From positions 132,651 through 196,650 of the forward strand of contig JAJFKL010000021.1 of the NCBI GenBank assembly GCA_021773235.1: DNA of 64,000 nt. The letters are read 5' to 3'. The position numbers and the translations under genes are program-made. The notes beneath the pieces are model-generated. The model saw only the letters and a list, made by a program, of their open reading frames with translations, did no database searches and had not been told where the DNA came from. This stretch comes from Gammaproteobacteria bacterium. Its GTDB lineage: Bacteria; Pseudomonadota; Gammaproteobacteria; Eutrophobiales; Eutrophobiaceae. Positions 592 to 14,500 of this stretch are shown here, one piece after another. Position 1 is the stretch's first letter; each line of letters begins with the position of its first letter.

Positions 592-665
592 TGGGGGTTC
601 GTCTAATGGTAGGACTGTGGACTCTGACTCCGCCAGTAGAGGTTCGAATCCTCTACCCCCAGCCA
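592..665 (+). tRNA. tRNA-Gln (anticodon CUG)
   Basis: 74 nt folded by hand into a cloverleaf: acceptor TGGGGGT/ACCCCCA, T-arm AGAGG-TTCGAAT-CCTCT, anticodon loop C-T-CTG-A-C, discriminator G and encoded CCA. Confidence 0.9.
619..665 (+). repeat. attL: 47-bp direct repeat forming the 3' part of tRNA-Gln
   Basis: GGACTCTGACTCCGCCAGTAGAGGTTCGAATCCTCTACCCCCAGCCA is repeated exactly at 21173-21219. Confidence 0.88.
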
Positions 666-1735: not shown

Positions 1736-2824
1736 TTATTCATGCGCCCATTTAAATCTCTGCTTCAAGCCATTACAGTATTTTATATCTAATAGTTTTT
1801 TATGTTGTAATTGACCAACAACAACTCCCGGTGCAATACCAATTGCTTTTGCAAAAGCTCGAATCGAGTTCTTGCTAAAATCAGAACGCGCTATAAATTT
1901 AGCAAAATATTTTGGTGGGATGAGTTCACTTTCAGCAAATTTATCAGCTTCGTTTTCTTTTTCTTGGTCAAGTCCATTCGTTCCTTCTAAAAAGAGTTCT
2001 TTTTTCCCATGCAAAATTATATGACCCGCCTCATGAAAAAAAGTGAACCATAAATGATCATCGGTTTTATAACGAAGACTCAATTGTATAATTGCTTTAT
2101 CTTTATTTAACCAACGAGTGGCACCGCTGACACCAGTCTTTGGTAACGCAGGGACAAAAACGACTGCAACTCCTCCCATTGCACATAATTCTTGCATAGC
2201 AGGAATAAATTGATCATGCCCTTTCGTTGTTAAGGCTCTAATCTCATCTAGTGCCTCTCGAAACTTAAGCTTGTTATAAGAAGCACATGTGATTTTTGAT
2301 GCTTCTAGTTCACCTTGTCTTAGCCAAGCAGAGACAGCCTCAGGAAAAACTTCATGAGTCTGATTTTGACGATATGCGACATTTAGATTTGGCCACATAT
2401 CATCCCATTGAGAGATATTTGCTATTCCAAAGAAACGAAGAACATCTATAAGCTGTTCTTTTTTATCTCTGGATTTATTTAGCCATCCAAATTTAGCCAT
2501 CGCATTAACTGGAATATGGGTCAGCCAGTCAAGATCACGTTCCAATTCCTCTTCTTCGGCTAAACGAGCAAGTATTTCTTGGTAATGCGATTCTAAATTT
2601 AACCAATAATCTACAGGCATCCCTAAAGCTCGTTCGAGTTTTATAGCTGTCTCCGGAGTGATTGTAGAGTTCGCCTTTAATATTGAAATAATATGTTTAG
2701 GAGTAATCCCTGTTCGCCGGGCGAGTTCTTGTCGGGTCATCCCCCTAAGCTCTAATTCGTAATCAAGAATTTCTCCAGGGGAAACCGCGTAATCAGGCTG
2801 GAACTCATTTTGTATATCAACCAT
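1736..2824 (-). CDS. HigA-like XRE-HTH antitoxin fused to an ImmA/IrrE-type zinc metallopeptidase domain
   Basis: N-terminus SPGEILDYELELRGMTRQELARRTGITPKHIISILKANSTITPETAIKLERALGMPVDYWLNLESHY matches the HigA/XRE pattern. C-terminal half carries an HEXXH motif (FFHEAGHIILH) typical of COG2856 peptidases. Overlaps the upstream toxin ORF by 8 nt. Confidence 0.8.
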   Translation of the reverse strand: MVDIQNEFQPDYAVSPGEILDYELELRGMTRQELARRTGITPKHIISILKANSTITPETAIKLERALGMPVDYWLNLESHYQEILARLAEEEELERDLDWLTHIPVNAMAKFGWLNKSRDKKEQLIDVLRFFGIANISQWDDMWPNLNVAYRQNQTHEVFPEAVSAWLRQGELEASKITCASYNKLKFREALDEIRALTTKGHDQFIPAMQELCAMGGVAVVFVPALPKTGVSGATRWLNKDKAIIQLSLRYKTDDHLWFTFFHEAGHIILHGKKELFLEGTNGLDQEKENEADKFAESELIPPKYFAKFIARSDFSKNSIRAFAKAIGIAPGVVVGQLQHKKLLDIKYCNGLKQRFKWAHE

Positions 2825-3161
2825 GGGTATCCTCCACTCCTTTGACTTTAATTGCTGTTACATTGCTCCAATCTAGACCACCTTCTGGCCTTATTGGGAC
2901 TGGATCGTTTATCGGCTCAAAAATAAGCCTATAAGGGTGATCCAAATCTACTGATAATTGTCCTTTTTTATTACCTTTTAACTCATGGCAACGATGAGGT
3001 GGGCTGTAAGGTGGTGCAAAAAGCCCTAAGTTTGGAGCTGCGCGAAGTTGTGTCATGATAATTTTCAAGGACTTAGTACGCCTAGGCCCATGGGTTCTCA
3101 CCATCTCCTTCTCCTCACTGAGTTGCTTTTGTATTTTCTTATTGGTGAAAATAATATCCAT
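2817..3161 (-). CDS. HigB/RelE-superfamily toxin-like protein (killer protein family)
   Basis: 114 aa. HRCHELKGNKKGQLSVDLDHPYRLIF resembles the HigB core (LHxLKGdxkGxwSvxvxxnwRixF). Toxin-first order and 8-nt overlap with the HigA-like gene. Confidence 0.65.
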   Translation of the reverse strand: MDIIFTNKKIQKQLSEEKEMVRTHGPRRTKSLKIIMTQLRAAPNLGLFAPPYSPPHRCHELKGNKKGQLSVDLDHPYRLIFEPINDPVPIRPEGGLDWSNVTAIKVKGVEDTHG

Positions 3162-3338: not shown

Positions 3339-4172
3339 ATGGAACAATTGAGAAGAATAGCGGCGGAATATTATATTAATTTTCAATCGCCAAAATACTT
3401 CTTAAACTTCAAGTCATGGGAATTATATACAACGATTTTATTTGCCATTCTTTTCGTGTACTTTTCAATCAATACTATCATCGAGCATGTTGATCTAAAG
3501 TTAGAAATACATAGAAACTGGAACTTCGGATGTATGCTTATTTCTGAAGTTTTATTTTTAATTATTTTCGGAAAATTAAAAGTTCGAAGAGATGCGTTTG
3601 CTCTAAATTCAATATGTGAAAAATATCCCGACTGCAAAGCCGAAAACATCTTCTATGCAAAAAAATACGTTTTAGAGAATATCTTTAATACATCAAACAA
3701 AAACTTCCTTGTCATTGCAAAAGAATTAAACAATATGCTTATATTAAGCAGAGATGAAACTGCACTAATGGACATAAGCGCGGATAGTTTTTTTGACTTT
3801 ATCTACAATGAAAAATCAAAACAGGGAGTGCTAACTTTGATTGTGCTAATTTTCTCAATGTTAGCCTTATTTGCATTCAGAGATGGTTATAACCTAGCTT
3901 CTATTTACTCTTTTTATTCTCCAGCTTCTTGGGGAAGTATTGCGCTTGCTTACTTTTCAATATTAGTTCTTATATTGATGGTAGTTATCTTCATAAAAGT
4001 AATATTCAACCTTACTAGAATAATAATTATACGATTAGGACTACTGATCGATAGAAATAATTACAAGGGAAACTACACGGTGAAATTTATCATTCGTGAT
4101 TTAGTAAACCATATTGAATATGACACAAAGAAAAAAGATGGTCAGACACAAATTATTTTACTCGGGGATTAA
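3339..4172 (+). CDS. hypothetical multi-pass membrane protein, island cargo
   Basis: 277-aa ORF with at least four long hydrophobic segments (e.g. LYTTILFAILFVYFSINTII, SIALAYFSILVLILMVVIFIKVIF); about 25% GC. Confidence 0.55.
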   Translation: MEQLRRIAAEYYINFQSPKYFLNFKSWELYTTILFAILFVYFSINTIIEHVDLKLEIHRNWNFGCMLISEVLFLIIFGKLKVRRDAFALNSICEKYPDCKAENIFYAKKYVLENIFNTSNKNFLVIAKELNNMLILSRDETALMDISADSFFDFIYNEKSKQGVLTLIVLIFSMLALFAFRDGYNLASIYSFYSPASWGSIALAYFSILVLILMVVIFIKVIFNLTRIIIIRLGLLIDRNNYKGNYTVKFIIRDLVNHIEYDTKKKDGQTQIILLGD

Positions 4173-4335
4173 ATATACACTCTACTGTCTTATCCTTACT
4201 CAAAGAAATTGTAACTATTTTCATTTGCTGTACTAGCGCTTCTAATTCTTTTCTCTGTTCTAGATAAGCAGTCGGATCGACTTTCTTAACAGTTTCTATT
4301 AACTGGATAGTTTGTTGAATGGATTCTTTGATCAT
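4153..4335 (-). CDS. small hypothetical protein (60 aa)
   Basis: Strong Shine-Dalgarno AAGGAGG 5 nt upstream of the ATG on the minus strand; no recognisable domain. Confidence 0.4.
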   Translation of the reverse strand: MIKESIQQTIQLIETVKKVDPTAYLEQRKELEALVQQMKIVTISLSKDKTVECIFNPRVK

Positions 4336-4377
4336 AAGTACCTCCTTGTACTTTCATTAATTGTTATCCCTAAATAT

Positions 4378-4572
4378 TTAACTAATAACTTTCTCTTCTA
4401 GTTTATCGAGTACGTCTTTCAACTGAACTTTTATTTTATCAAGCTCTGACTCGAACTCTGAATAAGTGCTGGGGTCTTGTTGTAGTGATCTATCAATCAC
4501 CTTCATAGTGATATACAAGGTATCTTCGAGCATGATTTTAGCTTTAGCCATAACAGCATAATAATATTCCAT
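4378..4572 (-). CDS. small hypothetical protein (64 aa), uncertain
   Basis: ORF only, with no convincing RBS; coiled-coil-like C-terminus. Confidence 0.25.
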   Translation of the reverse strand: MEYYYAVMAKAKIMLEDTLYITMKVIDRSLQQDPSTYSEFESELDKIKVQLKDVLDKLEEKVIS

Positions 4573-4665
4573 CCAGTGTCTAATTGAATCGTCTGAATGA
4601 GGTATATTTTGGGGTGATATTTACCCTCTGCTTTGAGTACAACTATGGCTTAATAAGAACTGATA

Positions 4666-4696
4666 TTAATGTCTGCTTTCACGAATTAACTATAAT
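4666..4696 (+). promoter_or_regulatory. Candidate promoter of the TIR gene (TTAATGTC - 17 nt - TATAAT)
   Basis: Perfect -10 TATAAT at 4691-4696. The upstream module TTAATGTCTGCTTT (4666-4679) recurs at 9483-9496 with identical 17-nt spacing to a -10-like ATAAAT. Confidence 0.45.
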
Positions 4697-4761
4697 GGTA
4701 TTATTACTGCAACCGACCCAAAATCGGTGTTATACGATAGAAACATAAAGGAGCAAGATGC

Positions 4762-5223
4762 GTGTCATATAATGTATTTATCAGTTATTCCACTAATGAC
4801 CTTTCAACAGTCGATCAATTCAGAGCCATTTTAGATAACCCAATCATTAATGTTTTTGTAGCTGAGTATTCTGTTATACCTGGAGAATCATTAAATGAGA
4901 AAATCATACCAGCAATACAAAACTGTAATTTATTCCTGCTGCTTTTTTCAAAAACCTCTCAAGCATCAGAGTGGGTGCAAAAAGAAATAGAATTAGCCAA
5001 AGCAAACAATAAGTTTATTCTTCCAGTTTTGCTAGATAATGAAGCCAAACTACCTGCATATTTGGGTGATATTAAATATTTGCCAGCACATGCAAAACCA
5101 GAAGAGGCAATGGATATTGTTAGTGAGCACATCACCAAAGAAGCAGAAAGAATACATACAAACAGTCTGCTGCTTGGTCTTTTAATTGGTGGTGGCTTAA
5201 TATGGTTAGCAACACGCAACTAA
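4762..5223 (+). CDS. TIR-domain protein with C-terminal transmembrane anchor
   Basis: GTG start 7 nt after AAGGAG. NVFISYSTNDL..., ...VFVAEYSVIPGESL..., LFLLLFSKTSQASEWVQKEIELA..., ILPVLLD match the bacterial TIR_2 pattern, including the SxWVxxE glutamate. Last ~20 aa LLLGLLIGGGLIWLATRN are hydrophobic. Confidence 0.8.
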   Translation: MSYNVFISYSTNDLSTVDQFRAILDNPIINVFVAEYSVIPGESLNEKIIPAIQNCNLFLLLFSKTSQASEWVQKEIELAKANNKFILPVLLDNEAKLPAYLGDIKYLPAHAKPEEAMDIVSEHITKEAERIHTNSLLLGLLIGGGLIWLATRN

Positions 5224-5302: not shown

Positions 5303-5845
5303 ATGGAAGAAACTAACTGGATTCAATACTTATCAGCTATTGGCTCTGTTGCAACACCGGTTCTAGTTCTTATATTAACTGGCGTTGGTTGGAAGTACAG
5401 GCAGTCCATGGAAAGGAAGATTAAAATTGAAGAAAAACTACGCGATGATCGAATCGATATCTATAACAAAATACTTGAGCCTTTTATTATACTTCTTATG
5501 ACTGAGGCAGCTTGGAATTCAGACAAGAAAAATAGAGGTAAAAACAAGAATGATATTGGTGGGGCACTAGTACTCTCACTTGATTATCGAAAGGTCTCAT
5601 TCAAGTTATCTTTAATTGGTTCTGATTCCGTCGTCTTAGCTTTTAATGAACTATTTCAATACTTTTATAATCAAGCTGATGCTGGAGCCACAGCAGACGA
5701 AGAAAAGACCAGGCAAATGCTCATACTACTTGGTAATTTTTTGCTGGAAATCAGAAAGAGCATGGGAAATGAAACTACAAAAATAGATAGTTGGGGCATG
5801 TTAGAGTGGTTTATTACTGATGCTAGGAAATATAGAGAAGATTAA
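5303..5845 (+). CDS. hypothetical protein with N-terminal TM helix (candidate partner of the TIR protein)
   Basis: 180-aa ORF. N-terminal hydrophobic segment YLSAIGSVATPVLVLILTGVGW, remainder helical by composition; no recognised domain. Confidence 0.55.
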   Translation: MEETNWIQYLSAIGSVATPVLVLILTGVGWKYRQSMERKIKIEEKLRDDRIDIYNKILEPFIILLMTEAAWNSDKKNRGKNKNDIGGALVLSLDYRKVSFKLSLIGSDSVVLAFNELFQYFYNQADAGATADEEKTRQMLILLGNFLLEIRKSMGNETTKIDSWGMLEWFITDARKYRED

Positions 5846-5853
5846 AGTATGAC

Positions 5854-5901
5854 AAGTGCCCCCAGAACGGCACGCCTAAGGCAGATGACTTGCTAGTCAA
5901 C
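5854..5901 (+). repeat. Left copy of an imperfect direct repeat bracketing the 6090-7727 module
   Basis: AAGTGCC...ACGGCACGCCTAAGGCA...TAGTCAAC aligns with 7701-7760 (AAGTGCC...ACGGGCACGCCTTAGGACA...TAGTCCAC). Core 13-mer at 5869-5881 vs 7731-7743 has 1 mismatch. Confidence 0.5.
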
Positions 5902-6089
5902 TGAAAGCTGAAATTTTTTAAACAACAATGCTGATGACCGCTTATAGCCGAAATAAGATTGATGATAAGATCGTCCCAAAGCAAGCGTTCATCATTAATT
6001 GTTTTAAAATCCTCTGTGATGCTCCCACAGTAAAAAGAATTGTAAAAGGACTCTGTTTTACAGCACGCTAATAAAAAAGCACACTTGAA

Positions 6090-7166
6090 ATGACGGCAAT
6101 AATCGGATTTCTCAAGAATGGACAGGGGGCTCTGTTGGGTGATGCCCTTGTTTCAAAACCAATGTCCAACGGTCTTCCGCCTGTATATGTCCCTACAGTT
6201 GGCCTCATTGAGCCGCAGAACTTTCAACTAGATGGATACCAGCCTGCCGGCTTGGGGCAGAAAATATCTATCATTGCGCCAAACGTAGCAATCGCTTGGA
6301 GTGGTCGACAGATTATTGCACGCGCTATTATCGTAGACCTCCGTCTCAAGACTGCAATTAAAGTTTTCAATCAAGCTGACATGGTTCAATGGATGGACAC
6401 TGATTTGCAAGAAATCGATCCCAAACGAGAAGCAAGCATTATCGGCTTACTCACTGACGCTGGTCGGGATTTATTATTTAGCAGAGAGGCAACGCGATAT
6501 GAGACCGATACCTTTGGTTATGTACATGTCGCCGGTACTGGTGAAGGCCAACTGCTCATGCGGATTCTTTCAGAAGAACCGCCGATAACAACAGGAATGT
6601 TGCACCCGGTGTTTTTTGCTCTTCATCTATTGGCAGACCTTATCGCCGATGAAGTACACAATGCTGACAGTCTAAAATTGCTGTTTGGGGGCAACTATGA
6701 AATCGCAGTGCGAACAGAAGAAGGATTTCAGAAACTGCCAGACGTAGTTATCGTCCTCTGGTTAGCAATGCATGATGGGACGAGCCTCCTACTTAAGTTT
6801 CCCTACCGAATTATCAAAAACGTATATGTCGATGATCTACTCATAACGCGTTCACTGATCTTCAATGATGGTAGTGGTGATATAACTAGTGATAAATCAA
6901 ACGTAATACCACCTATAGATAAACCTTATCCTAGCTCGAGTGAACAAGCGAAAATAATAGCGACCTCATTGCATTCACATCGTTTCGTTCATTTCTTTTA
7001 CGCAAGGAGAAAGTCTGGTTCTATTTTTTCCTTAACCAGAATTGACCAGCACAGTAATGATGGCATATCGTTGAACGAACACGATGGCAAGGTTACTTTA
7101 GAGGTTCCTAGAGAATTTGTCGATGCTGTACTGGCACAGATGCAGCAGGAATATGATGAAGGCTAA
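6090..7166 (+). CDS. hypothetical protein; N-terminal ~215 aa resemble an HslV/proteasome-beta-like Ntn (Thr1) hydrolase
   Basis: Starts MTAIIGFLKNGQGALLGD (Thr directly after Met, Asp at mature position 17). Later GQKISIIAPNVAIAWSG and GYVHVAGTGEG lie in the same order as HslV K33, AGFAGG and IGSGG. The first in-frame start follows tandem stop codons. The domain call is inference only. Confidence 0.45.
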   Translation: MTAIIGFLKNGQGALLGDALVSKPMSNGLPPVYVPTVGLIEPQNFQLDGYQPAGLGQKISIIAPNVAIAWSGRQIIARAIIVDLRLKTAIKVFNQADMVQWMDTDLQEIDPKREASIIGLLTDAGRDLLFSREATRYETDTFGYVHVAGTGEGQLLMRILSEEPPITTGMLHPVFFALHLLADLIADEVHNADSLKLLFGGNYEIAVRTEEGFQKLPDVVIVLWLAMHDGTSLLLKFPYRIIKNVYVDDLLITRSLIFNDGSGDITSDKSNVIPPIDKPYPSSSEQAKIIATSLHSHRFVHFFYARRKSGSIFSLTRIDQHSNDGISLNEHDGKVTLEVPREFVDAVLAQMQQEYDEG

Positions 7167-7205
7167 TATAACCTTTAGCCAACTTCTGCTTCTGGCCGAA
7201 CGAAG

Positions 7206-7727
7206 ATGACTAACAACAAGCACTTAAAACCAATCGCCGAAATGGTTCTCATCGGCGAGATCGTGACCCAATCGAAGTTCGCCGAGAAGGCCGCTGGTCA
7301 GCTAGCAAAGACCTCTGACCCGATCGAAGTATGGGGCTCGATACAGTCGATTCTAGTCGCCGCAGCGAACGTGTCGAAGATACTATGGCCAGCTAGGAAA
7401 GAATATATTGAGCGCGGGAAACAGCTGCGGGAGCTACTAGAAGTAGATGATCACAACTTGCTCTTTAATCGCACATTTCGAAATCACTTTGAGCATTACG
7501 ACGAACGGGTCGAAGATTGGTTTGATAACAATAACTCTTCCGTCTACATGGACTCGATAATCGATCCGTTTGAGCCAACCCCGTTGGGTCTGCCACAGTT
7601 CTTCCACCGCAGATACAATCCGACCAGTCAATCGTTGTCTTTCCGTGACGAATCGATCGACCTTAAGGCTGTTCTTGCTGCGCTCGGAGAGATTCGGAAG
7701 AAGTGCCGGCTTTTTGCCCTACCATAG
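7206..7727 (+). CDS. HEPN-motif protein (putative RNase-like), GC-rich cargo gene
   Basis: 173 aa. RNHFEH (R92-H97, nt 7479-7496) fits the Rx4-6H HEPN signature with polar Asn after Arg. Helical composition. 39 bp downstream of the Ntn-like ORF. Confidence 0.5.
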   Translation: MTNNKHLKPIAEMVLIGEIVTQSKFAEKAAGQLAKTSDPIEVWGSIQSILVAAANVSKILWPARKEYIERGKQLRELLEVDDHNLLFNRTFRNHFEHYDERVEDWFDNNNSSVYMDSIIDPFEPTPLGLPQFFHRRYNPTSQSLSFRDESIDLKAVLAALGEIRKKCRLFALP

Positions 7728-7760
7728 ACGGGCACGCCTTAGGACAATACGTTAGTCCAC
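7701..7760 (+). repeat. Right copy of the imperfect direct repeat bracketing the 6090-7727 module
   Basis: See 5854-5901. This copy overlaps the last codons of ORF 7206-7727. Confidence 0.5.
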
Positions 7761-7779
7761 TTCTGGTCGAAATGAGAGT

Positions 7780-7800
7780 TATAATGAAACCGACCCAAAA
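7780..7800 (+). promoter_or_regulatory. Candidate -10 (TATAAT) plus shared leader 13-mer AACCGACCCAAAA
   Basis: TATAAT at 7780-7785 followed by AACCGACCCAAAA at 7788-7800. The identical 13-mer follows the TATAAT of the TIR promoter at 4711-4723. Confidence 0.4.
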
Positions 7801-7832: not shown

Positions 7833-8396
7833 ATGAATAATCGATACGACATTGAATTTGCCAAGTATGAATTAGCAAAATACAGCTTCATTGAATGCTT
7901 AAATTTCATGAGGCTGTATGAACAACTGAATGAGTTGGCGGAAAGTAAACTATCTTTTGGAACAATGATTTCCACTGCGTTTGTTGTTACCTATGCCCGC
8001 CCATTCAGTAGTAGCAACAAGGAATATCATGGTTTAAAAATGGGCGCAATTTCAAAAAAATGGCTTAAACCTCTAAGTGCTAAGCAAAAGGAAGCTCATG
8101 AGTATTTAGTTGGTACGGGACGTAATGCGTTAGCTGCACATATCGATCTGGGAAAGTTGATGCCAAACATATTTGTTAAAGACGGACTCAGCAATGATTA
8201 TATGTTTGATATACATCTTCCAGTAATTAACAGCAATACATTAGAACTTTATGAAGAACTGGTCACCGCAGTATTTAGTTTTTGTCAAGATCATCAACAA
8301 AGTCTTAAACCGTATTTATCAGGAGATCACTTAGTACCTGAAGTATTCCATCCAGATGCTAGCACTTTCATTAAACGGAGTTCACAGAAGCAATGA
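7833..8396 (+). CDS. HEPN-motif protein, AbiU2-like
   Basis: 187 aa. GTGRNALAAHIDL (R97-H103) fits Rx5H with Asn after Arg and the RNxxxAHxD flavour I associate with AbiU2-type HEPN domains. Upstream YARPF segment. Confidence 0.5.
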   Translation: MNNRYDIEFAKYELAKYSFIECLNFMRLYEQLNELAESKLSFGTMISTAFVVTYARPFSSSNKEYHGLKMGAISKKWLKPLSAKQKEAHEYLVGTGRNALAAHIDLGKLMPNIFVKDGLSNDYMFDIHLPVINSNTLELYEELVTAVFSFCQDHQQSLKPYLSGDHLVPEVFHPDASTFIKRSSQKQ

Positions 8397-8466: not shown

Positions 8467-9423
8467 ATGAATTACCGGCGCGATATAATTAACGAGATTT
8501 CGGATTTTCGGGAACGGCACCGATTCGGCGAAGCCATAATCGAACTACCTATGCGCCTCAGCTCGTTAGAGATCGCTTTTAGAGATTTTGATGGGAAAAA
8601 TACCGAACTGGCGAAGTATTTTCCGGTGTCGCTTGTTGCATGTATAGAGACCTATTTTAGAATGGTGATTAAAGACCTCATTGATTTCGGGGAGCCCTAT
8701 CTAAGTAACGCAGAGAACGTTGCGGGTGCAACAAAAATAGACTTCCGCGCTTTGAAAGCGGTTCACGGCAAATCTATTACAGTAGGTGAACTCGTAGCCC
8801 ACAACATCAAAATCAGCAGTCTTTCACAAATTGAGGCGACCTTAACAACGTTGCTAGGAAACAGTTTTTTGGACCAACTGCGTATTGTTCAAGATCGTTG
8901 GGATATCGAAGTCATCGGTAATGAACCTAAACCCATGTTGTCTGAACCCGACCGAGTTTTTGCAGATGTTTCGAAGACCTTTGAACTCAGGCACATTATT
9001 TGTCATGAAATCGCATCTGCTTACGAAATAGATCTAACGGACATTGAAAGTAGTTTTGTTAGTTCAATAAGTTTTTTGCGCGCGTCTGACGAATACATCT
9101 CCGAAATCAAATTTCCCGGTGCTCCGTTGACACAGACGGATATGAATATCGATGCTGGAAACTCACTTTCCGAGCGGAGGGAGGAAATGAGTGTAGTCGT
9201 GGAACAACTTAAATCTCACCTCGACGATGCTGAAAAACGAGCCTTCGAATTGTCCCAAGATAAATGGGATAAGTATTGCGAAGCATGGGCAGATTTTGTG
9301 GCTGGCGAACGGGCTAGCGGTGGGACTATTTGGCCTACGGTCCATGCTGGCGAGATGGAGGCCGCAGTAAAGGCTAGAATTGAACAACTATCGAAATTTC
9401 GAAAGCTTAGTGACCCCCTATAG
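8467..9423 (+). CDS. HEPN-motif N-terminal domain fused to a DUF1311 (LprI-like) C-terminal domain
   Basis: FELRHIICHE (R175-H180) fits Rx4H. C-terminal LSQDKWDKYCEAWADFVAGERASGGTIWP...ARIEQL matches the QxxWxxYxxxxC...GG...R...L pattern of DUF1311. Confidence 0.5.
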   Translation: MNYRRDIINEISDFRERHRFGEAIIELPMRLSSLEIAFRDFDGKNTELAKYFPVSLVACIETYFRMVIKDLIDFGEPYLSNAENVAGATKIDFRALKAVHGKSITVGELVAHNIKISSLSQIEATLTTLLGNSFLDQLRIVQDRWDIEVIGNEPKPMLSEPDRVFADVSKTFELRHIICHEIASAYEIDLTDIESSFVSSISFLRASDEYISEIKFPGAPLTQTDMNIDAGNSLSERREEMSVVVEQLKSHLDDAEKRAFELSQDKWDKYCEAWADFVAGERASGGTIWPTVHAGEMEAAVKARIEQLSKFRKLSDPL

Positions 9424-11182: not shown

Positions 11183-11509
11183 ATGGGATTTGGAATACTT
11201 GAAATTATTATTGCCATCGTTTTATTTTCTACGGGCATTTATATATTTTTCAAATTTATTGATGGATTATCTTGGTTGTTCAGTTGGGCAAAACGCCACA
11301 TCAAAATAATTCATGCCCAAATAGATTATGTCCGTCTCAAAATACTAATATCTACAATTTGGGTAATATTTTGTGTTTGGTATTGGGCAGATCAGTATCA
11401 TGCAAGTTTCAGACGAATTGATGAATCAATATTAATACTATCTGTCCCGTTATTAATATTGTGGTCTGTAAATCTGTATAAATGGATTATTAGAAAACCA
11501 GCTATTTAA
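11183..11509 (+). CDS. small membrane protein (108 aa, ~3 TM)
   Basis: Hydrophobic ORF (ILEIIIAIVLFSTGIYIFFKFI..., ILISTIWVIFCVWYW..., ILILSVPLLILWSV); converges on the giant gene with an 8-nt overlap. Confidence 0.45.
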   Translation: MGFGILEIIIAIVLFSTGIYIFFKFIDGLSWLFSWAKRHIKIIHAQIDYVRLKILISTIWVIFCVWYWADQYHASFRRIDESILILSVPLLILWSVNLYKWIIRKPAI

Positions 11510-14500
11510 TTAGGTTCTCCACCATCTTCTGTGCTGGTTTACGTGTGAAGTGTGTTGCGTTCACACCGGGTATCATATTCACCACCTCTTTTGCCTGTTT
11601 TTCTCGTTGGCTTTTCTTTGTAGTGTCTCTATCCAAAGACGTTAATACTCTGGAGATATCACCAGCAGCTGGTCCAAGCAAGTTATAAAGTCTTCCTTTC
11701 CAGTTGCTATGGCCAAACCGGTATGGATTAGCGAATTGATAAATAGTGGTCAAATCACCTGTGAAACCAGCCCTATCAACTGCATCATAAATACGTCCGT
11801 TTGAATCCTGCAACTTTCTGAAAGCTGGATTAGCATCACCGTATTTCAACCAATCCCGCCAGTACTGTGCATAGTAAGCCGTGGCAATACTGACAATCAT
11901 AGGTACTACAAAACGGGCCTTATCTTCCCAATTTGGAAAACGTCCAATGTTCTGAAGCATTGATTTTAGGAATGTATTGCTGAATACAGTGATAAATCGT
12001 TTGAACTGGAATACCAGGTTCCAGCCCGGATGTTTCATTATCGGTGGTGTTGTCGCTTCATTAGGATCGGTAATGACTTTCTGCGCCCATCGTTGGGCAG
12101 CAAAATCAATTTTATCATTTAAGGCCTGACTGACTTCACCCTTGGCGACTAATTTCATATCCGCTTCATCAAGACCAAAATCTTTCAGTTCCATTAAATT
12201 CTGATCAACATTTTTACCCTTTTCAATTTCAACTGAATAATCTTTAATGACATGCCGTGCCATATCAAACGCCACTAAACGTTGAATATTCGTTAATTGC
12301 TCCAGCATAGTTGCTCTCATGAATTTAGAGGTAACACGTCCACTATGGCCACCCCATCGTCTAGTCCATGCTTCTTGAAGAGAACGCACGGTAATAACAC
12401 CCATACGTTCAGCATCACGTCTTAATTCTGACTTGGGTATATGTCGTTTACCGGTAATAAATTTATCAGCTGCAGCGGTAGCTTCTAATATGCCATCACC
12501 AATACCACGGGCGTAAGATGGTAATGACTTTAATGTGCCACCATGTACCGCTGGTGCCAGTGTTTCAGGGAACGATGCCATGGCCACCAGCGGCAAGTGA
12601 ATCATTGTTTCAAGGCTTGATACCAGTCTGGATGCTTTATTAAGAATTTCTGATTCGAATCGTGGGCCGCGCCCTTGAAGGCTGTCTGCCAGATCATAAA
12701 TGGTATTCACCGCTTCTTTCATGCTGATCGAGGAATCGACTTTACCGGCCTCATAATCATCAATAATTTCTTTTACAATAGAATTTAGCTGTTGTTCTTT
12801 ATCGCCAAATGCACGTGAATATTCAGCCCTACGTGTCGAATGATGAATATATCTAGCCAGTACTGAATCAAGCTCATTAACTAAGAACGGTTTTAACAAG
12901 TCATATTCAATATCAATTGAACGGCTTTTTTCTTGACTGGTTTTACTGGCCCTGCCTTCAATACCCATTGCACGTTGAACATAGACAGTGCCGTGATTAT
13001 CAACCTGGACACGTTCACTCATTCTTTCCGGATCATAGATACCTTGATCGGAGCCAATTATTTTATTGTAGGTAGATTCCGGTGTGCTATATCCGTGATC
13101 GGTTAATAGCTTTATGAAGCGTTTCTTCATAATTGGATTTAATAAATTATCAGTGTCATAAACTCTTGGGAAATAGTTTTTCTCATACCCAATTTCAACA
13201 CCGGCATCAACCATGTATTGATGAACATCATCCAACAGTTTCCTTACTGCCTGTGCTTCTTTTTCAAGTCGTTTTGGCACACTGCCATTCTCACTATTTA
13301 AGCCTTTTACAATGGCTTCGGTATCTGTTTTTTTAATACCTAATCGTCCAGACAATGATTCAATAATATCATCCATGCGCTGGCCATACTCGCCTTCCAT
13401 TTTTGTTCTGTTTTGGATTAAATCAATACCTTCAATTTCCCTGTATTCATTACGTTCTTCTTTATAAATCATATCCGCCAGCTTTTTAGCAGCTGGTGTA
13501 TTTATGTCACGTATAACTTGAACAGGTCGAAAATAGAATATTTTACCAATAGCATAAGCCATATCAGCAACAGGCTTTGCCTTACCGTGGAATAAGTCCG
13601 TAATCTTTCCTTTATCGATATCAGATATATTTTCTGGTGGTTTCTTTCCACTGCCTTCATCACTAATATAACCTTGTTGTTTTCTACCGGTTTTAACACC
13701 AGAACGTCTTGAATATTGAACACCTAGTTCACCTGGTTCAATAGTGCCCTCTTCCACAAACTTTTTTGATTTTTCTATCAGCGTTTTAATATCCGCATCA
13801 TTGAATTTCATGTGAGGCATAACGCTTCTCAACCACTCGCGTATTTTGCCAATTAACCTATCAAGCCAAACATCAGGCTTACCACTCTCCGCCGTACGTG
13901 CAACATATTCCTGTGCTGCGGTTCTGCGATCAGCTTCATTATCCATGTCCAATTCATAATCTTCTGCAATATCGGCAAAGGTATCATTACCTAAGTCACT
14001 GGCCATCTGATCAAAGAACGTATTAGCATAGTCGCCAAGTAATGTATTAACTCCATTATGTCCAATGGCTTCATGAAGCATGACTTCAACGGCACGTTTT
14101 TGATTAGGTAAATTATCCGCAACCAGATAAATAGTGCCATCAATCAAAGCACCTTCGGTATCAAGCGGATGATCTGAACCTAGTAAATCATTAGCAGAAT
14201 CGACTATTTCAACTTTAGGTGCGTTCTTCCATTTCTTGGATATACCTGCAATTATTTTCTTAAGATTATTTGCTTTTAGGATTGTTGCTGGTTTTACCTT
14301 CGCACGTGAATAATATTTACCTTCATGTGGATTATTAGTTCCTCTCTCAGCAGTTGAATAATAACTACCATCTAAATCCTTCACGAATGAATCAAGCATT
14401 CTAATTTTTATATCACGGCCAAACGCAGCGATATTTTCTGATGTAGGAAGATAGGTCGCTTTTGCAATCATTGCCATTGCACCAGTACTGTGTATTTCTT

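Follow-up and report, generated by a model that had tools for sequence, protein, structure and literature searches.

A divergent proteasome-type hydrolase and a conserved protein with an R-x4-H motif, probably unrelated single-gene modules, are encoded side by side in a tRNA-Gln genomic island

In a survey published in 2021, Fuchs, Alva and Lupas described 22 families of divergent prokaryotic proteasome homologs, such as RPC, DAH, GPH, PMI-5/6 and connectase, and reported no informative gene contexts for the new homologs (PMC8665760). Published representatives include WP_152342571.1, WP_085249540.1 and WP_179179973.1. Connectase, a monomeric enzyme of methanogenic archaea, is without helices H1 and H2 and carries a two-helix lid at S3/S4, the site at which its substrate lid is inserted (PMC8665760). 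The locus described here also has to be compared with the HEPN RNases, such as HepT toxins, Abi-type proteins and the PrrC/RloC anticodon nucleases that are embedded in type I R-M loci. As defined by Anantharaman et al. in 2013, HEPN proteins reportedly carry their motif where the fourth helix of a helical bundle begins.

We analyzed a stretch of 64,000 nucleotides from a gammaproteobacterial contig, referred to below as the window, with a focus on two neighboring genes, ORF A and ORF B (Table 1). An earlier note on this DNA had given the coordinates and motifs of both ORFs and the gap between them correctly, and its hand counts of G+C were exact (33/60 at 6121-6180, 35/60 at 7261-7320 and 15/60 at 3421-3480). 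Over the whole genes, GC was 0.442 for ORF A and 0.494 for ORF B, compared to 0.30-0.37 for the adjacent genes and 0.384 for the window; the gene two positions downstream (8467-9423) was also high in GC (0.447). Both ORFs are carried by an island of ~20.5 kb that is enclosed by an exact 47-nt repeat of tRNA-Gln (619-665 and 21173-21219). Such a second copy of the tRNA 3' end at the opposite boundary, together with an integrase, is what characterizes tRNA-integrated genomic islands. Besides the integrase, the island encodes a small terminase subunit (terS/TerS), a giant 1908-aa RadC-domain polyvalent protein, a TIR protein, a HigB/HigA-like pair and HEPN-like genes, which, along with the att repeat, agrees with the previous view of the region as horizontally acquired and rich in defense genes. 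The true boundaries of the mobile unit are the tRNA-Gln repeats around this island and not the shorter repeats noticed earlier around the two genes.

Table 1. Features of the two-gene locus and of the surrounding island (positions within the window)
Feature	Position	Strand	Basis or remark
tRNA-Gln(CTG)	592..665	+	ARAGORN; the island's left att-type repeat lies at its 3' end (619-665, 47 nt)
Left copy of the previously noted repeat	5854..5901	+	Similar to the 3' end of ORF B and the trailer behind it
ORF A, 358 aa, divergent proteasome-beta/HslV-like Ntn hydrolase; stand-alone gene that has a ~22-nt leader of its own	6090..7166	+	ORF, AF2 model, Foldseek, family profile
Thr2 codon, predicted N-terminal nucleophile (Thr1 after Met removal)	6093..6095	+	T in 72/72
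Asp18 codon, equivalent of proteasome Asp17	6141..6143	+	D in 72/72
Residues 19-57, between Asp18 and Lys58	6144..6260	+	Insertion; alignment, model
Lys58 codon, equivalent of proteasome Lys33	6261..6263	+	K in 71/72
Gly149-Thr150-Gly151, proteasome Gly128-Ser129-Gly130 motif	6534..6542	+	G 72/72, S/T 68/72, G 72/72
C-terminal extra domain, about residues 231-358 (~130 residues), mixed beta/alpha	6780..7163	+	Model E233-E338, H341-357
ORF B, 173 aa, large, highly conserved, unannotated solo-gene family with Rx4H motif	7206..7727	+	ORF, family search, AF2 model
R92-N-H-F-E-H97 (RNHFEH, residues 92-97), start of predicted helix 4 (H90-107)	7479..7496	+	Conservation, model
ORF B stop codon plus short trailer, similar in part to what follows ORF B-family genes of unrelated genomes; overlaps the right copy of the repeat (7701-7760)	7725..7760	+	Alignment, consensus TAGACGGnCACGCnGnnTAACAAnnCGTAGCAG
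Tyrosine integrase (Arm-DNA-bind_3 + Phage_integrase)	19648..21009	-	Adjoins the right att repeat
Right att-type repeat, island end	21173..21219	+	Identical over 47 nt to the 3' half of the tRNA-Gln

ORF A is a very divergent, uncharacterized Ntn hydrolase of the proteasome/HslV type, as judged by fold search, profile search against the PDB and residue conservation. Its AlphaFold (AF2) model (pLDDT 95, pTM 0.92) exhibited the alpha-beta-beta-alpha sandwich of proteasome subunits. When this model was compared to the PDB with Foldseek, as had been proposed, 908 matches were obtained at E≤1e-3, and the best were all 20S beta subunits (E 2e-7, prob 1.0), aligned over ~227 columns with a target-normalized TM of 0.55-0.64. 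A profile of the family run against PDB sequences matched proteasome alpha7 (E 0.002) and HslV (E 0.005); the 15 best matches, and most of the weaker ones, were proteasome alpha subunits or HslV. No Pfam (E≤1), NCBIfam or PADLOC model matched ORF A, and just 1 of 72 family members reached E 0.033 with the Pfam Proteasome model PF00227. The kinship is therefore visible through the profile-versus-PDB comparison and the fold, not via the curated model.

The protein begins with MTAIIGFLKNGQGALLGD and contains GQKISIIAPNVAIAWSG and GYVHVAGTGEG further along. The order of Met-Thr start, Asp, Lys and GxG, from which the relationship had first been suspected, was borne out by fold, profile and conservation. 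In 72 aligned family members with a mean identity of ~25%, Thr2 and the Asp were invariant and the Lys was conserved in all but one; Gly72, which lies 14 residues past Lys58 and corresponds at identical spacing to proteasome Gly47, was conserved in 71/72. Profile alignment placed Lys58 to Gly151 in register with HslV residues 35-138, and the HMM alignments of the family to proteasome alpha7 and HslV begin at Lys58. As conservation and fold show, the predicted active site is of the proteasome type, with the Asp17 equivalent, the Lys, the oxyanion Gly and the G-S/T-G loop all in place. Of 159 family representatives, 119 start with MT, and others with V-T; if the initiator Met is cleaved off as it is from E. 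coli HslV, Thr1 would become the N-terminal nucleophile.

The stretch between Asp18 and Lys58 exceeds the 15 residues between Asp17 and Lys33 of the proteasome by ~24, which confirmed the insertion that had been noticed here. It contains an invariant Pro35, is modeled with strands at E20-24, E32-34, E38-40 and E50-55, and falls at S3/S4, the connectase lid site. The C-terminal part, previously left unassigned, is an extra domain of ~130 residues that lies outside the columns aligned by Foldseek and had no match in the PDB or Pfam. Because a conserved insertion at the connectase lid site is combined with this extra domain, ORF A would be a substrate-specific peptidase, amidase or transpeptidase rather than a bulk-degradation ring. 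HslV proper was ruled out as an identity for ORF A by the size of 358 aa, the insertion, the C-terminal domain and the absence of an adjacent AAA+ gene. Connectase was ruled out as well: the model has helices (H74-90 and H95-109) at the H1/H2 positions, the insertion is modeled as short strands in place of the two helices, and the family is bacterial.

ORF B occurs as a solo gene that is strongly conserved and horizontally mobile. Its family comprises 888 clusters at 60-83% amino acid identity and was located at 80 genome loci spanning many phyla; between phyla, nucleotide identity is 77-82%. Because the first 12 residues are conserved in the family, the start at 7206 is right, and not that of the 161-aa version on record. 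The AF2 model (pLDDT 82) contains four helices (9-35, 39-60, 65-78 and 90-107) and a beta-hairpin module (residues 114-152). R92 and H97 were invariant in sets of 61, 80 and 10 sequences, the last being the most distant, down to 23% identity, and N93 was at least 90% conserved; outside the motif, R89, D99 and R135 were also invariant and R101 nearly so. The neighbors of the gene vary: HsdM was found in 11 loci, RadC in 6, an integrase in 6, an OLD-type ATPase/TOPRIM protein in 6, and an adjoining UvrD-type helicase (Gabija-like) in 3. Relatives were also present in Gordonia phage Madeline, within its lysogeny module, and on a Rhodococcus plasmid, where an Abi gene and an integrase flank the gene.

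That ORF B is a HEPN-type protein, as proposed before, held with respect to the motif, which is real and invariant and sits, as an Rx4-6H motif should, at the N-terminus of the last core helix. Profile and structure searches did not add to this: no match was found in Pfam, NCBIfam, PADLOC or PHROG, nothing relevant came up in PDB profile searches, and scanning 80 members one by one gave a single HepT-like match (E 0.12). Foldseek against the PDB reached E 0.34 at best, with HepT chains at E ~2 (prob ≤0.11), and hhalign to the two neighboring HEPN-like proteins gave a probability of <1%. On motif and topology only, the R-N-x3-H at the start of the fourth helix could, with chances about evenly poised, be the site of a HEPN-type metal-independent RNase acting as a stand-alone abortive-infection or toxin-type effector. 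It is a substantial possibility, somewhat short of even, that the R-x4-H belongs to another catalytic or binding site in a helical-plus-beta-hairpin fold that has no characterized relative. The failure to match any HEPN profile or structure, a sole significant fold match to an uncharacterized Gordonia phage protein, and the invariant or near-invariant residues and the hairpin outside the canonical motif all fit such a site. The form of the motif (R-polar-x3-H, with its conserved N93), its position at the fourth helix and the repeated occurrence of the gene in defense-type neighborhoods argue for HEPN instead, and Foldseek is weak on small helical bundles. The functional role of ORF A has to be weighed from its family, which is bacterial and numbers 664 representatives in an exhaustive search. 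About half of the annotated contexts resemble housekeeping loci, with ABC and TctC transporters, aldehyde dehydrogenase and polysaccharide genes, and because of this, a defense role of the family is not established. If ORF A had no part in immunity but served the cell in metabolism or protein maturation, as a substrate-specific Ntn peptidase, amidase or connectase-like ligase that hitch-hikes on mobile DNA, these contexts would be expected, as would the lack of family members among viral contigs and phage genomes. The equally uninformative contexts of the homologs described by Fuchs et al. (PMC8665760) and the insertion at the connectase lid site point in the same direction. Such a role is less easily reconciled with the patchy distribution, with the absence of any conserved partner or pathway (among 33 family loci, no neighbor cluster was common to more than 3, and those were near-identical), and with the TIR/TA/HEPN-rich island in which the gene is found here. 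Several members also lie in or beside defense or mobile modules: one, on Oscillatoria plasmid NC_019763, separates hsdS from hsdR within a type I R-M operon, and others adjoin SMODS + integrase, SLFN_AlbA_2, DUF4062, NERD/Imm32, or TniQ + Peptidase_M78. We regard the non-immune role as a tentative possibility. It appears unlikely that the ORF A family consists of stand-alone Thr1 proteases directed against phages or mobile elements, which would use the lid insertion and a C-terminal sensor to cleave a specific phage or host protein, while ORF B would represent a new, exceptionally mobile HEPN clade, i.e., an independent abortive-infection RNase beside it.

Since the two genes lie on the same strand with a gap of 39 bp, and no terminator-like site was found between them, they may be co-transcribed here. 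Their relatives were not found together elsewhere. Searching 87 ORF B loci with ORF A by tblastn, 79 of them with at least 1150 nt upstream, revealed no ORF A relative (0/87, and 0/79 informative loci), and the reverse search with ORF B gave no ORF B relative in the 33 loci of the ORF A family (0/33), of which 25 extend 600 nt or more downstream. The earlier note had interpreted the pair as a repeat-bracketed cassette coupling a protease to an RNase effector and had made its case depend on co-occurrence among homologues; with none in 79 and 33 loci, this interpretation had to be abandoned. Only two close ORF A loci are available for comparison, and a lineage-specific functional pairing is possible. 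One two-gene defense system, jointly acquired as a repeat-bracketed cassette, in which the threonine protease ORF A senses or activates the HEPN RNase ORF B, would account for the shared strand and short gap, for the higher GC of both genes relative to their adjacent neighbors, and for a weak flanking similarity that exceeds most comparisons of real sequence windows under strict gap scoring. Moreover, the ORF B-like gp37 of phage Madeline also adjoins a protease gene, annotated as a metalloprotease. Such a system is nevertheless highly improbable. In multi-gene defense systems, the component genes recur next to each other in unrelated genomes, which ORF A and ORF B did not do in the loci searched; the closest ORF A homologue (locus L001, 74% identity, the sole close one) is without ORF B and is followed by a convergent SNase-like ORF. 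Nucleotide similarity to other genomes ends between the genes, being confined to 6068-7161 for ORF A (to L001) and, separately, to 7197-7738 for ORF B, and the two genes differ from each other in GC. The repeat copies are missing from homologous loci and are unremarkable under ungapped or lax-gap null models. We found no evidence that ORF A and ORF B work together. Most probably, they are two unrelated single-gene modules that came to lie side by side in the variable cargo of the tRNA-Gln island.

The imperfect direct repeats at 5854-5901 and 7701-7760 could be reproduced as a gapped alignment of ~48 nt (score 17, compared to a shuffle mean of 6.5) with 13-mer cores at 5869-5881 and 7731-7743, but were marginal and absent from homologous loci. 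Ungapped comparison retained only 18 nt at 83% identity, and 13-mer pairs with at most 1 mismatch at 1-3 kb distance numbered 133 in the window versus 89-111 in block shuffles. The two intergenic regions (5854-5980 and 7701-7799) scored 21, which was equaled by 2/1906 and 0/1028 real sequence windows; under a laxer gap scheme, it was equaled by 71/1770 and 7/1028. The left copy was not found upstream of the ORF A homologue in L001, the GGCACGCC core was not found beside other ORF B genes, and the trailer/repeat region showed no significant secondary structure and no hairpin. Integron R'' cores follow the consensus RYYYAAC, with which the GCCTAAC in the trailer of one ORF B homolog is compatible. 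That the flanking similarity records true recombination, by serial insertion into a hotspot or at an attC-like cassette site, and hence a mobile unit with both genes, is quite unlikely. It would explain this core, the gapped scores above shuffles and nearly all real windows under strict scoring, and why the left copy opens with AAGTGCC, i.e., the ORF B Lys-Cys codons, followed by a trailer motif that is found after ORF B-family genes in other phyla. However, identity is just 65-75% with several indels, significance is lost with lax gap costs or without gaps, there is no conserved hairpin, and the window holds neither a matching GTTRRRY partner nor an integron integrase. Even if real, such a history would reflect repeated turnover of ORF B-type genes and not a joint unit of both genes. 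The left copy could be what is left of a former ORF B-type gene, or the similarity could be due to chance. The ends of the conserved units (6068/7161 and 7197/7738) lie off the repeats, unlike those of a repeat-bounded mobile cassette, and the bracketing repeat is not a cassette boundary.

Read as two separate modules, the attractive combination of a protease and an RNase is an accident of adjacency in a hotspot of gene turnover, and it calls for caution in inferring systems from single loci. ORF A adds a well-supported member, with near-perfect AlphaFold confidence and invariant catalytic residues, to the little-explored divergent bacterial proteasome homologs; its architecture is unusual in combining an extra domain with an insertion at the position of the connectase lid, and the family is absent from domain databases despite about 660 cluster representatives. 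The recurrence of the family in mobile and defense-type neighborhoods, including a type I R-M operon, provides a testable lead on function, which was left open by Fuchs et al. 2021 (PMC8665760). If ORF A did act as a stand-alone anti-phage protein, prokaryotic immunity would gain its first enzyme of the proteasome type. The ORF B family is very widespread, strongly conserved and wholly unannotated, and it has a clear candidate active site as well as relatives in prophage lysogeny modules.

Compared to the families of Fuchs et al. by their published description, ORF A is likewise a solo, patchily distributed protein of predicted proteasome fold with Thr1/Asp17/Lys33 intact, and S3/S4 insertions and added C-terminal domains also occur among them (PMC8665760). 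The two together are reported there only for connectase; unlike RPC, PPH and connectase, ORF A has both helices H1 and H2, and an association with type I R-M operons or defense islands is absent from that work (PMC8665760). With HslV (ClpQ) and 20S beta subunits (MEROPS T1, PF00227), ORF A shares the predicted sandwich, the Asp17, Lys, Gly oxyanion and G-S/T-G positions and the Lys-to-Gly spacing of 14, and with HslV also the Thr right behind the initiator Met. In contrast to these proteins, it is longer (358 aa versus about 175-230, HslV proper having ~175), contains the 24-residue Asp-Lys insertion and the ~130-residue C-terminal domain, does not match PF00227, and lacks nearby genes for an HslU/AAA+ partner or a second subunit.

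Like the HEPN RNases (HepT toxins, Abi-type, PrrC/RloC), ORF B is small, has an invariant R-[N/D/H]-x3-H with which the fourth helix of its model begins, and occurs in defense islands, often beside type I R-M genes. It differs from them by the lack of a profile or structural match to any HEPN family, by the added beta-hairpin module and extra invariant Arg/Asp residues, by the absence of an adjacent MNT-type or other antitoxin gene, and by its unusual conservation across phyla at both the amino acid and the nucleotide level. The island as a whole resembles P4-like and PICI-like phage satellites and integrative islands with variable anti-phage cargo: it is located at a tRNA gene with a 47-nt duplication, carries a terminal tyrosine integrase and a small terminase subunit without capsid and tail genes, and has TIR, TA and HEPN-like cargo. 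It differs from the satellites by its 1908-aa RadC-domain polyvalent protein, since proteins of this kind and size are more typical of conjugative elements or large phages.

ORF A, which encodes a proteasome/HslV-like protein, and ORF B, which encodes a protein with an Rx4H (HEPN-type) motif, are neighbors in the window. An earlier note, made from sequence alone, had proposed that they form a two-gene defense cassette bracketed by direct repeats. Its coordinates for both genes, the 39-bp gap between them and the RNHFEH motif in ORF B proved exact.

Features of the window and conserved residues of ORF A (counts are members of a 72-member alignment)
Feature	Position	Strand	Description
tRNA-Gln	592-665		
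Left att-type repeat	619-665		last 47 nt of tRNA-Gln
HigB/HigA-like pair	1736-3161	-	HigB-like toxin of 113 aa (phrog_3066) overlapping a 362-aa HTH protein
TIR protein	4762-5223	+	153 aa; Pfam TIR_2, E 3e-20; ThsB-like; C-terminal hydrophobic tail
AbiN-like ORF	5303-5845	+	180 aa; weak match, E 0.004; N-terminal TM helix
ORF A	6090-7166	+	358 aa; N-terminus MTAIIGFLKNGQGALLGD
ORF A Thr2			72/72; proteasome Thr1 equivalent
ORF A Asp18			72/72; proteasome Asp17 equivalent
ORF A Lys58			71/72; proteasome Lys33 equivalent
ORF A Gly72			71/72; proteasome Gly47 equivalent
ORF A Gly149			72/72; proteasome Gly128 equivalent
ORF A Ser/Thr150			68/72; proteasome Ser129 equivalent
ORF A Gly151			72/72; proteasome Gly130 equivalent
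ORF B	7206-7727	+	173 aa; 39 bp downstream of ORF A
RNHFEH motif	7479-7496	+	ORF B residues 92-97
RNALAAH-motif protein	7833-8396	+	187 aa; GRNALAAH, an Rx5H HEPN-type motif
LprI-like protein	8467-9423	+	318 aa; C-terminal LprI (lysozyme inhibitor-like) domain, E 1e-9
RadC-domain protein	11502-17228	-	1908 aa
Small terminase subunit	17632-18249		further in than the integrase
Tyrosine integrase	19648-21009		just inside the right repeat copy
Right repeat	21173-21219		exact 47-nt copy of the tRNA-Gln 3' half

ORF A matched no Pfam, NCBIfam, PADLOC or PHROG model, and scans of its family members against family libraries yielded nothing useful. When 5.8 billion proteins were searched by word index, only ORF A itself and one 74% identical homolog were retrieved, which suggested an orphan. 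This was overturned when 1.84 billion cluster representatives were scanned exhaustively with HMMER, revealing 664 relatives at E ≤ 1e-3, 273 of them at E ≤ 1e-10. Among the matches listed, nearly all were 340 to 400 aa in length and 22 to 33% identical to ORF A, and most could be aligned end to end. Conservation was counted in an alignment of 72 members (28% mean column identity). Once the initiator Met is removed, Thr2 and Asp18 become Thr1 and Asp17; Lys and Gly are 14 residues apart, exactly as Lys33 and Gly47 are in the proteasome, and the G-S/T-G loop corresponds to proteasome Gly128-Ser129-Gly130 (roles of active-site residues from PMC8665760). Searched against all PDB sequences, the family profile found mainly proteasome-family chains, the 15 best matches being proteasome alpha subunits (alpha7, E 0.002) or HslV (E 0.005), with the HslV alignment spanning the Lys to the GxG loop. 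An AlphaFold2 model built from the 72-member alignment (pLDDT 95.1, pTM 0.92) gave 908 Foldseek matches in the PDB at E ≤ 1e-3; the top ones were all 20S beta subunits (probability 1.00, ∼227 aligned columns, target-normalized TM 0.55 to 0.64).

The proteasome-like core comprises approximately residues 1 to 230. Within it, residues 19 to 57 accommodate ∼24 extra residues and hold a Pro35 that never varies; the location is the S3/S4 site, which in connectase bears the substrate-selecting lid (PMC8665760). Residues ∼231 to 358 form an additional beta-rich domain with a long terminal helix, for which neither the PDB profile search nor Foldseek detected relatives. Conservation, profile matches, model and Foldseek thus bore out the earlier note on the Ntn fold, the Thr1/Asp17/Lys/GxG landmarks, the insertion that separates Asp from Lys, and an unassigned C-terminal third. 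As judged from sequence and the predicted structure, ORF A shows a proteasome-type active site. Methionine aminopeptidase would expose Thr1, as in HslV, to generate an Ntn hydrolase. Given that the lid-site insertion is conserved, that an extra domain is present and that no AAA+ partner accompanies the gene, this enzyme may be a substrate-specific peptidase, amidase or transpeptidase rather than a degradation chamber.

The genomic contexts of the ORF A family were mixed, defense-type and housekeeping-type alike. At the locus of the only close homolog (74% amino acid and 79% nucleotide identity), nucleotide similarity to the window was limited to 6068-7161; a convergent SNase-like ORF follows, and no tRNA adjoins the gene. 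On the Oscillatoria nigro-viridis plasmid NC_019763, a family member of 393 aa (WP_015211639.1, 5001-6182 of that locus; 26% identity to ORF A, E 4e-23, all motifs kept) is embedded in a type I R-M operon, where it separates hsdS from hsdR and overlaps the start of the latter; hsdR is followed by a gene for an SprT-family metalloprotease. Other members adjoin SMODS and an integrase, SLFN_AlbA_2, DUF4062, NERD/Imm32, or TniQ and Peptidase_M78, and roughly as many annotated contexts contain transporters, dehydrogenases or polysaccharide genes. No tandem paralog was present at locus L127. Two ORF A-family loci (L112 and L120) have in common an upstream pair, a protein of 1012 to 1087 aa with no Pfam match and a metallo-beta-lactamase-fold protein of 380 to 390 aa, which may be a subfamily-specific association. 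A viral origin of ORF A was rejected, since searches of viral contigs and phage genomes returned no relatives.

ORF B belongs to a large, unnamed and highly conserved family. The protein on record (NCBI-sourced) has 161 aa and starts at Met13. The 12 upstream residues (7206-7241) are conserved across homologs, with M1, P9, L10 and E12 kept in at least 90% of them, and the start at 7206, giving 173 aa, is therefore the real one. The family comprises 888 clusters at 90% identity; the best 120 of these clusters are 59 to 83% identical to ORF B and include MAGs labeled Chlorobium, Longimicrobiales and Pacearchaeota. Copies occur in 80 species-level genomes, including those of Chlorobiaceae, Gammaproteobacteria, Omnitrophota, Elusimicrobia, Planctomycetia, Myxococcota and many Bacteroidota. 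R92 and H97 were invariant in 61 close homologs, in the 80 genome homologs (identity down to 39%) and, together with R89 and D99, in the most distant relatives found (23 to 30% identity), which come from Gordonia phages and from Bacillus, Thiodictyon and Rhodococcus plasmids. Asn follows R92 in 90% or more of the sequences. In the AlphaFold model (pLDDT 82, pTM 0.78), helices span residues 9-35, 39-60, 65-78 and 90-107, the motif opening the fourth; residues 114-152 then form a beta-hairpin module, and one last helix ends the chain.

The form and position of this motif fit the HEPN definition reportedly given by Anantharaman et al. in 2013. ORF B nevertheless failed the formal tests. It matched no Pfam, NCBIfam, PADLOC or PHROG model and was absent from all domain and defense libraries searched. 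Matches of family members to DUF7691 and PigL_N were weak, below threshold and uninformative, and member-by-member scans gave a single HepT-like match (1/80, E 0.12). PDB profile searches returned nothing relevant, and neither did hhalign comparison with the two neighboring HEPN-like proteins; in Foldseek searches of the PDB, nothing scored better than E 0.34, and HepT chains came out at about E 2. Structural comparison gave a single significant match, to the uncharacterized protein gp37 from the Gordonia phage Madeline (E 1.5e-6, TM 0.72). Of the earlier HEPN assignment, the Rx4H motif is thus real and invariant, whereas profile and structure searches gave no significant match to HEPN. We keep a HEPN-like RNase as the best hypothesis for ORF B, at roughly even odds, and not as a finding. 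On this view, ORF B would work as a dimeric RNase of the HEPN type and would need no partner to serve as an abortive-infection or toxin-type effector. Relatives of ORF B occupy the repressor-integrase module of one temperate phage and, on a plasmid, the interval between an Abi gene and an integrase; such positions are typical for prophage or plasmid exclusion genes. In Madeline (3535-4761 of the phage locus), gp37 shares its strand with the immunity repressor and integrase genes and is flanked by a small "metalloprotease" gene, gp38, and the HTH gene gp36. This protease-adjacent arrangement superficially resembles that in the window and may be coincidental.

The proposed two-gene system was not real. 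The earlier note had tied it to co-occurrence of the genes elsewhere, and none was found (0/79 and 0/33 loci): tblastn with ORF A gave no match in 87 ORF B-family loci, 79 of them informative (at least 1,150 nt upstream), nor did tblastn with ORF B in 33 ORF A-family loci, 25 of them informative (at least 600 nt downstream). The upstream neighbor of ORF B in Chlorobium was rejected as an ORF A relative. Clustering of ORF A neighbors revealed no partner, the largest sharing being three loci on near-identical contigs, and the next gene downstream was convergent in 16 of the 28 loci in which one was detected. No partner was general for ORF B either: HsdM was encoded no more than ∼1 kb downstream in 11 loci, and in 6 RadC came immediately after the gene. 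Six loci had an OLD-type ATPase/TOPRIM protein, joined in 3 of them by an adjacent UvrD-type helicase (Gabija-like), and 6 had integrases. In copies from Chlorobium and other distant lineages, ORF B shared 77 to 82% nucleotide identity over 7197-7738 only, so that homology ended within ∼10 nt of the coding sequence on both sides, which implies recent and frequent horizontal transfer as a single-gene unit. With no co-occurrence, no common partner and homology limited to each gene, both appear to be autonomous units. The hand counts of G+C in the earlier note were exact in all three cases, and its statement that both ORFs are GC-richer than their neighbors holds against adjacent genes (ORF A 0.442 and ORF B 0.494 versus 0.30 to 0.37; window 0.384), though the gene two positions downstream (8467-9423) is similar at 0.447, and the two ORFs are unequal in GC. 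A promoter and terminator scan stayed at background level. Since only 39 bp and no terminator-like site separate ORF A and ORF B, their co-transcription here is possible, which is not enough to make a system.

The bracketing repeats (5854-5901 and 7701-7760) fared only partly better. Their 13-nt cores are present (5869-5881 and 7731-7743), and with gaps the segments aligned over ∼48 nt with a score of 17, above shuffles (6.5 ± 1.3). Ungapped, they match over 18 nt at 83%, a quality found ∼2 times per kb in the window (133 versus 89 to 111 in shuffles). The two intergenic regions reached a gapped score of 21, equaled by 2/1906 and 0/1028 real windows; with cheaper gaps, the score was equaled by 71/1770 and 7/1028. 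The signal is marginal, and neither copy was conserved beside homologs of ORF A or ORF B. Part of the right copy falls in the ORF B trailer (7725-7760), whose first ∼30 to 35 nt after the stop are partly conserved in unrelated phyla (consensus TAGACGGnCACGCnGnnTAACAAnnCGTAGCAG), being seen just after family stop codons in L005, L007, L009 and L011. The left copy resembles this trailer and opens with AAGTGCC, corresponding to Lys-Cys codons of the ORF B C-terminus; it may be what is left of an ORF B-type gene that once occupied this hotspot. No protein-level relics or paralogs of either ORF were found elsewhere in the window. A structured RNA or terminator in the trailer was rejected: no stable or covarying structure was detected (z-scores −1.2 to +0.6, only a 4-bp consensus hairpin), and the scan was at background. 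GCCTAAC in one family trailer fits the integron R'' core.

Instead of a repeat-bracketed pair, the unit of acquisition is a ∼20.5-kb island with individually exchangeable cargo genes. The tRNA-Gln repeat, the integrase and the TIR and HigBA-like cargo make the earlier inference of a horizontally acquired defense hotspot sound. Core genes (an MCP gene and rnfC) lie outside the right repeat, and no capsid or tail genes were present among the island proteins scanned. The island could represent a phage satellite or a PICI-like element; ORF A and ORF B lie in its defense-cargo region (848 to ∼11500). The large RadC-domain protein has one Pfam match only, a central RadC-like JAB domain (residues 695-795), and resembles the "polyvalent" proteins of mobile elements. 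Within the cargo, the TIR protein and the AbiN-like ORF may form a separate small defense module. The partner of the HigB-like toxin combines an HTH with a metalloprotease-like (ImmA/IrrE-type) part, as an antitoxin or regulator. Downstream of ORF B, the 187-aa protein had no family match, and the LprI-like protein has a sub-threshold HEPN_RiboL-PSP match (residues 41-212, E 0.0011); with ORF B, three consecutive genes carry HEPN-like features. At L007, an HEPN_RiboL-PSP gene lies ∼640 bp downstream of an ORF B homolog.

Our literature search found no paper linking proteasome-fold proteins to phage defense. At its predicted active site, ORF A is like HslV and proteasome beta subunits, as seen in alignment and model; it differs from HslV in size, insertions and partner. 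It is not a connectase, because H1 and H2 are present. By published description, it resembles the 22 divergent homolog families of Fuchs, Alva and Lupas, who found no informative gene context for them (PMC8665760). What the window holds is a proteasome-like putative Ntn hydrolase of distinctive architecture and, next to it, a member of an unannotated HEPN-motif family.
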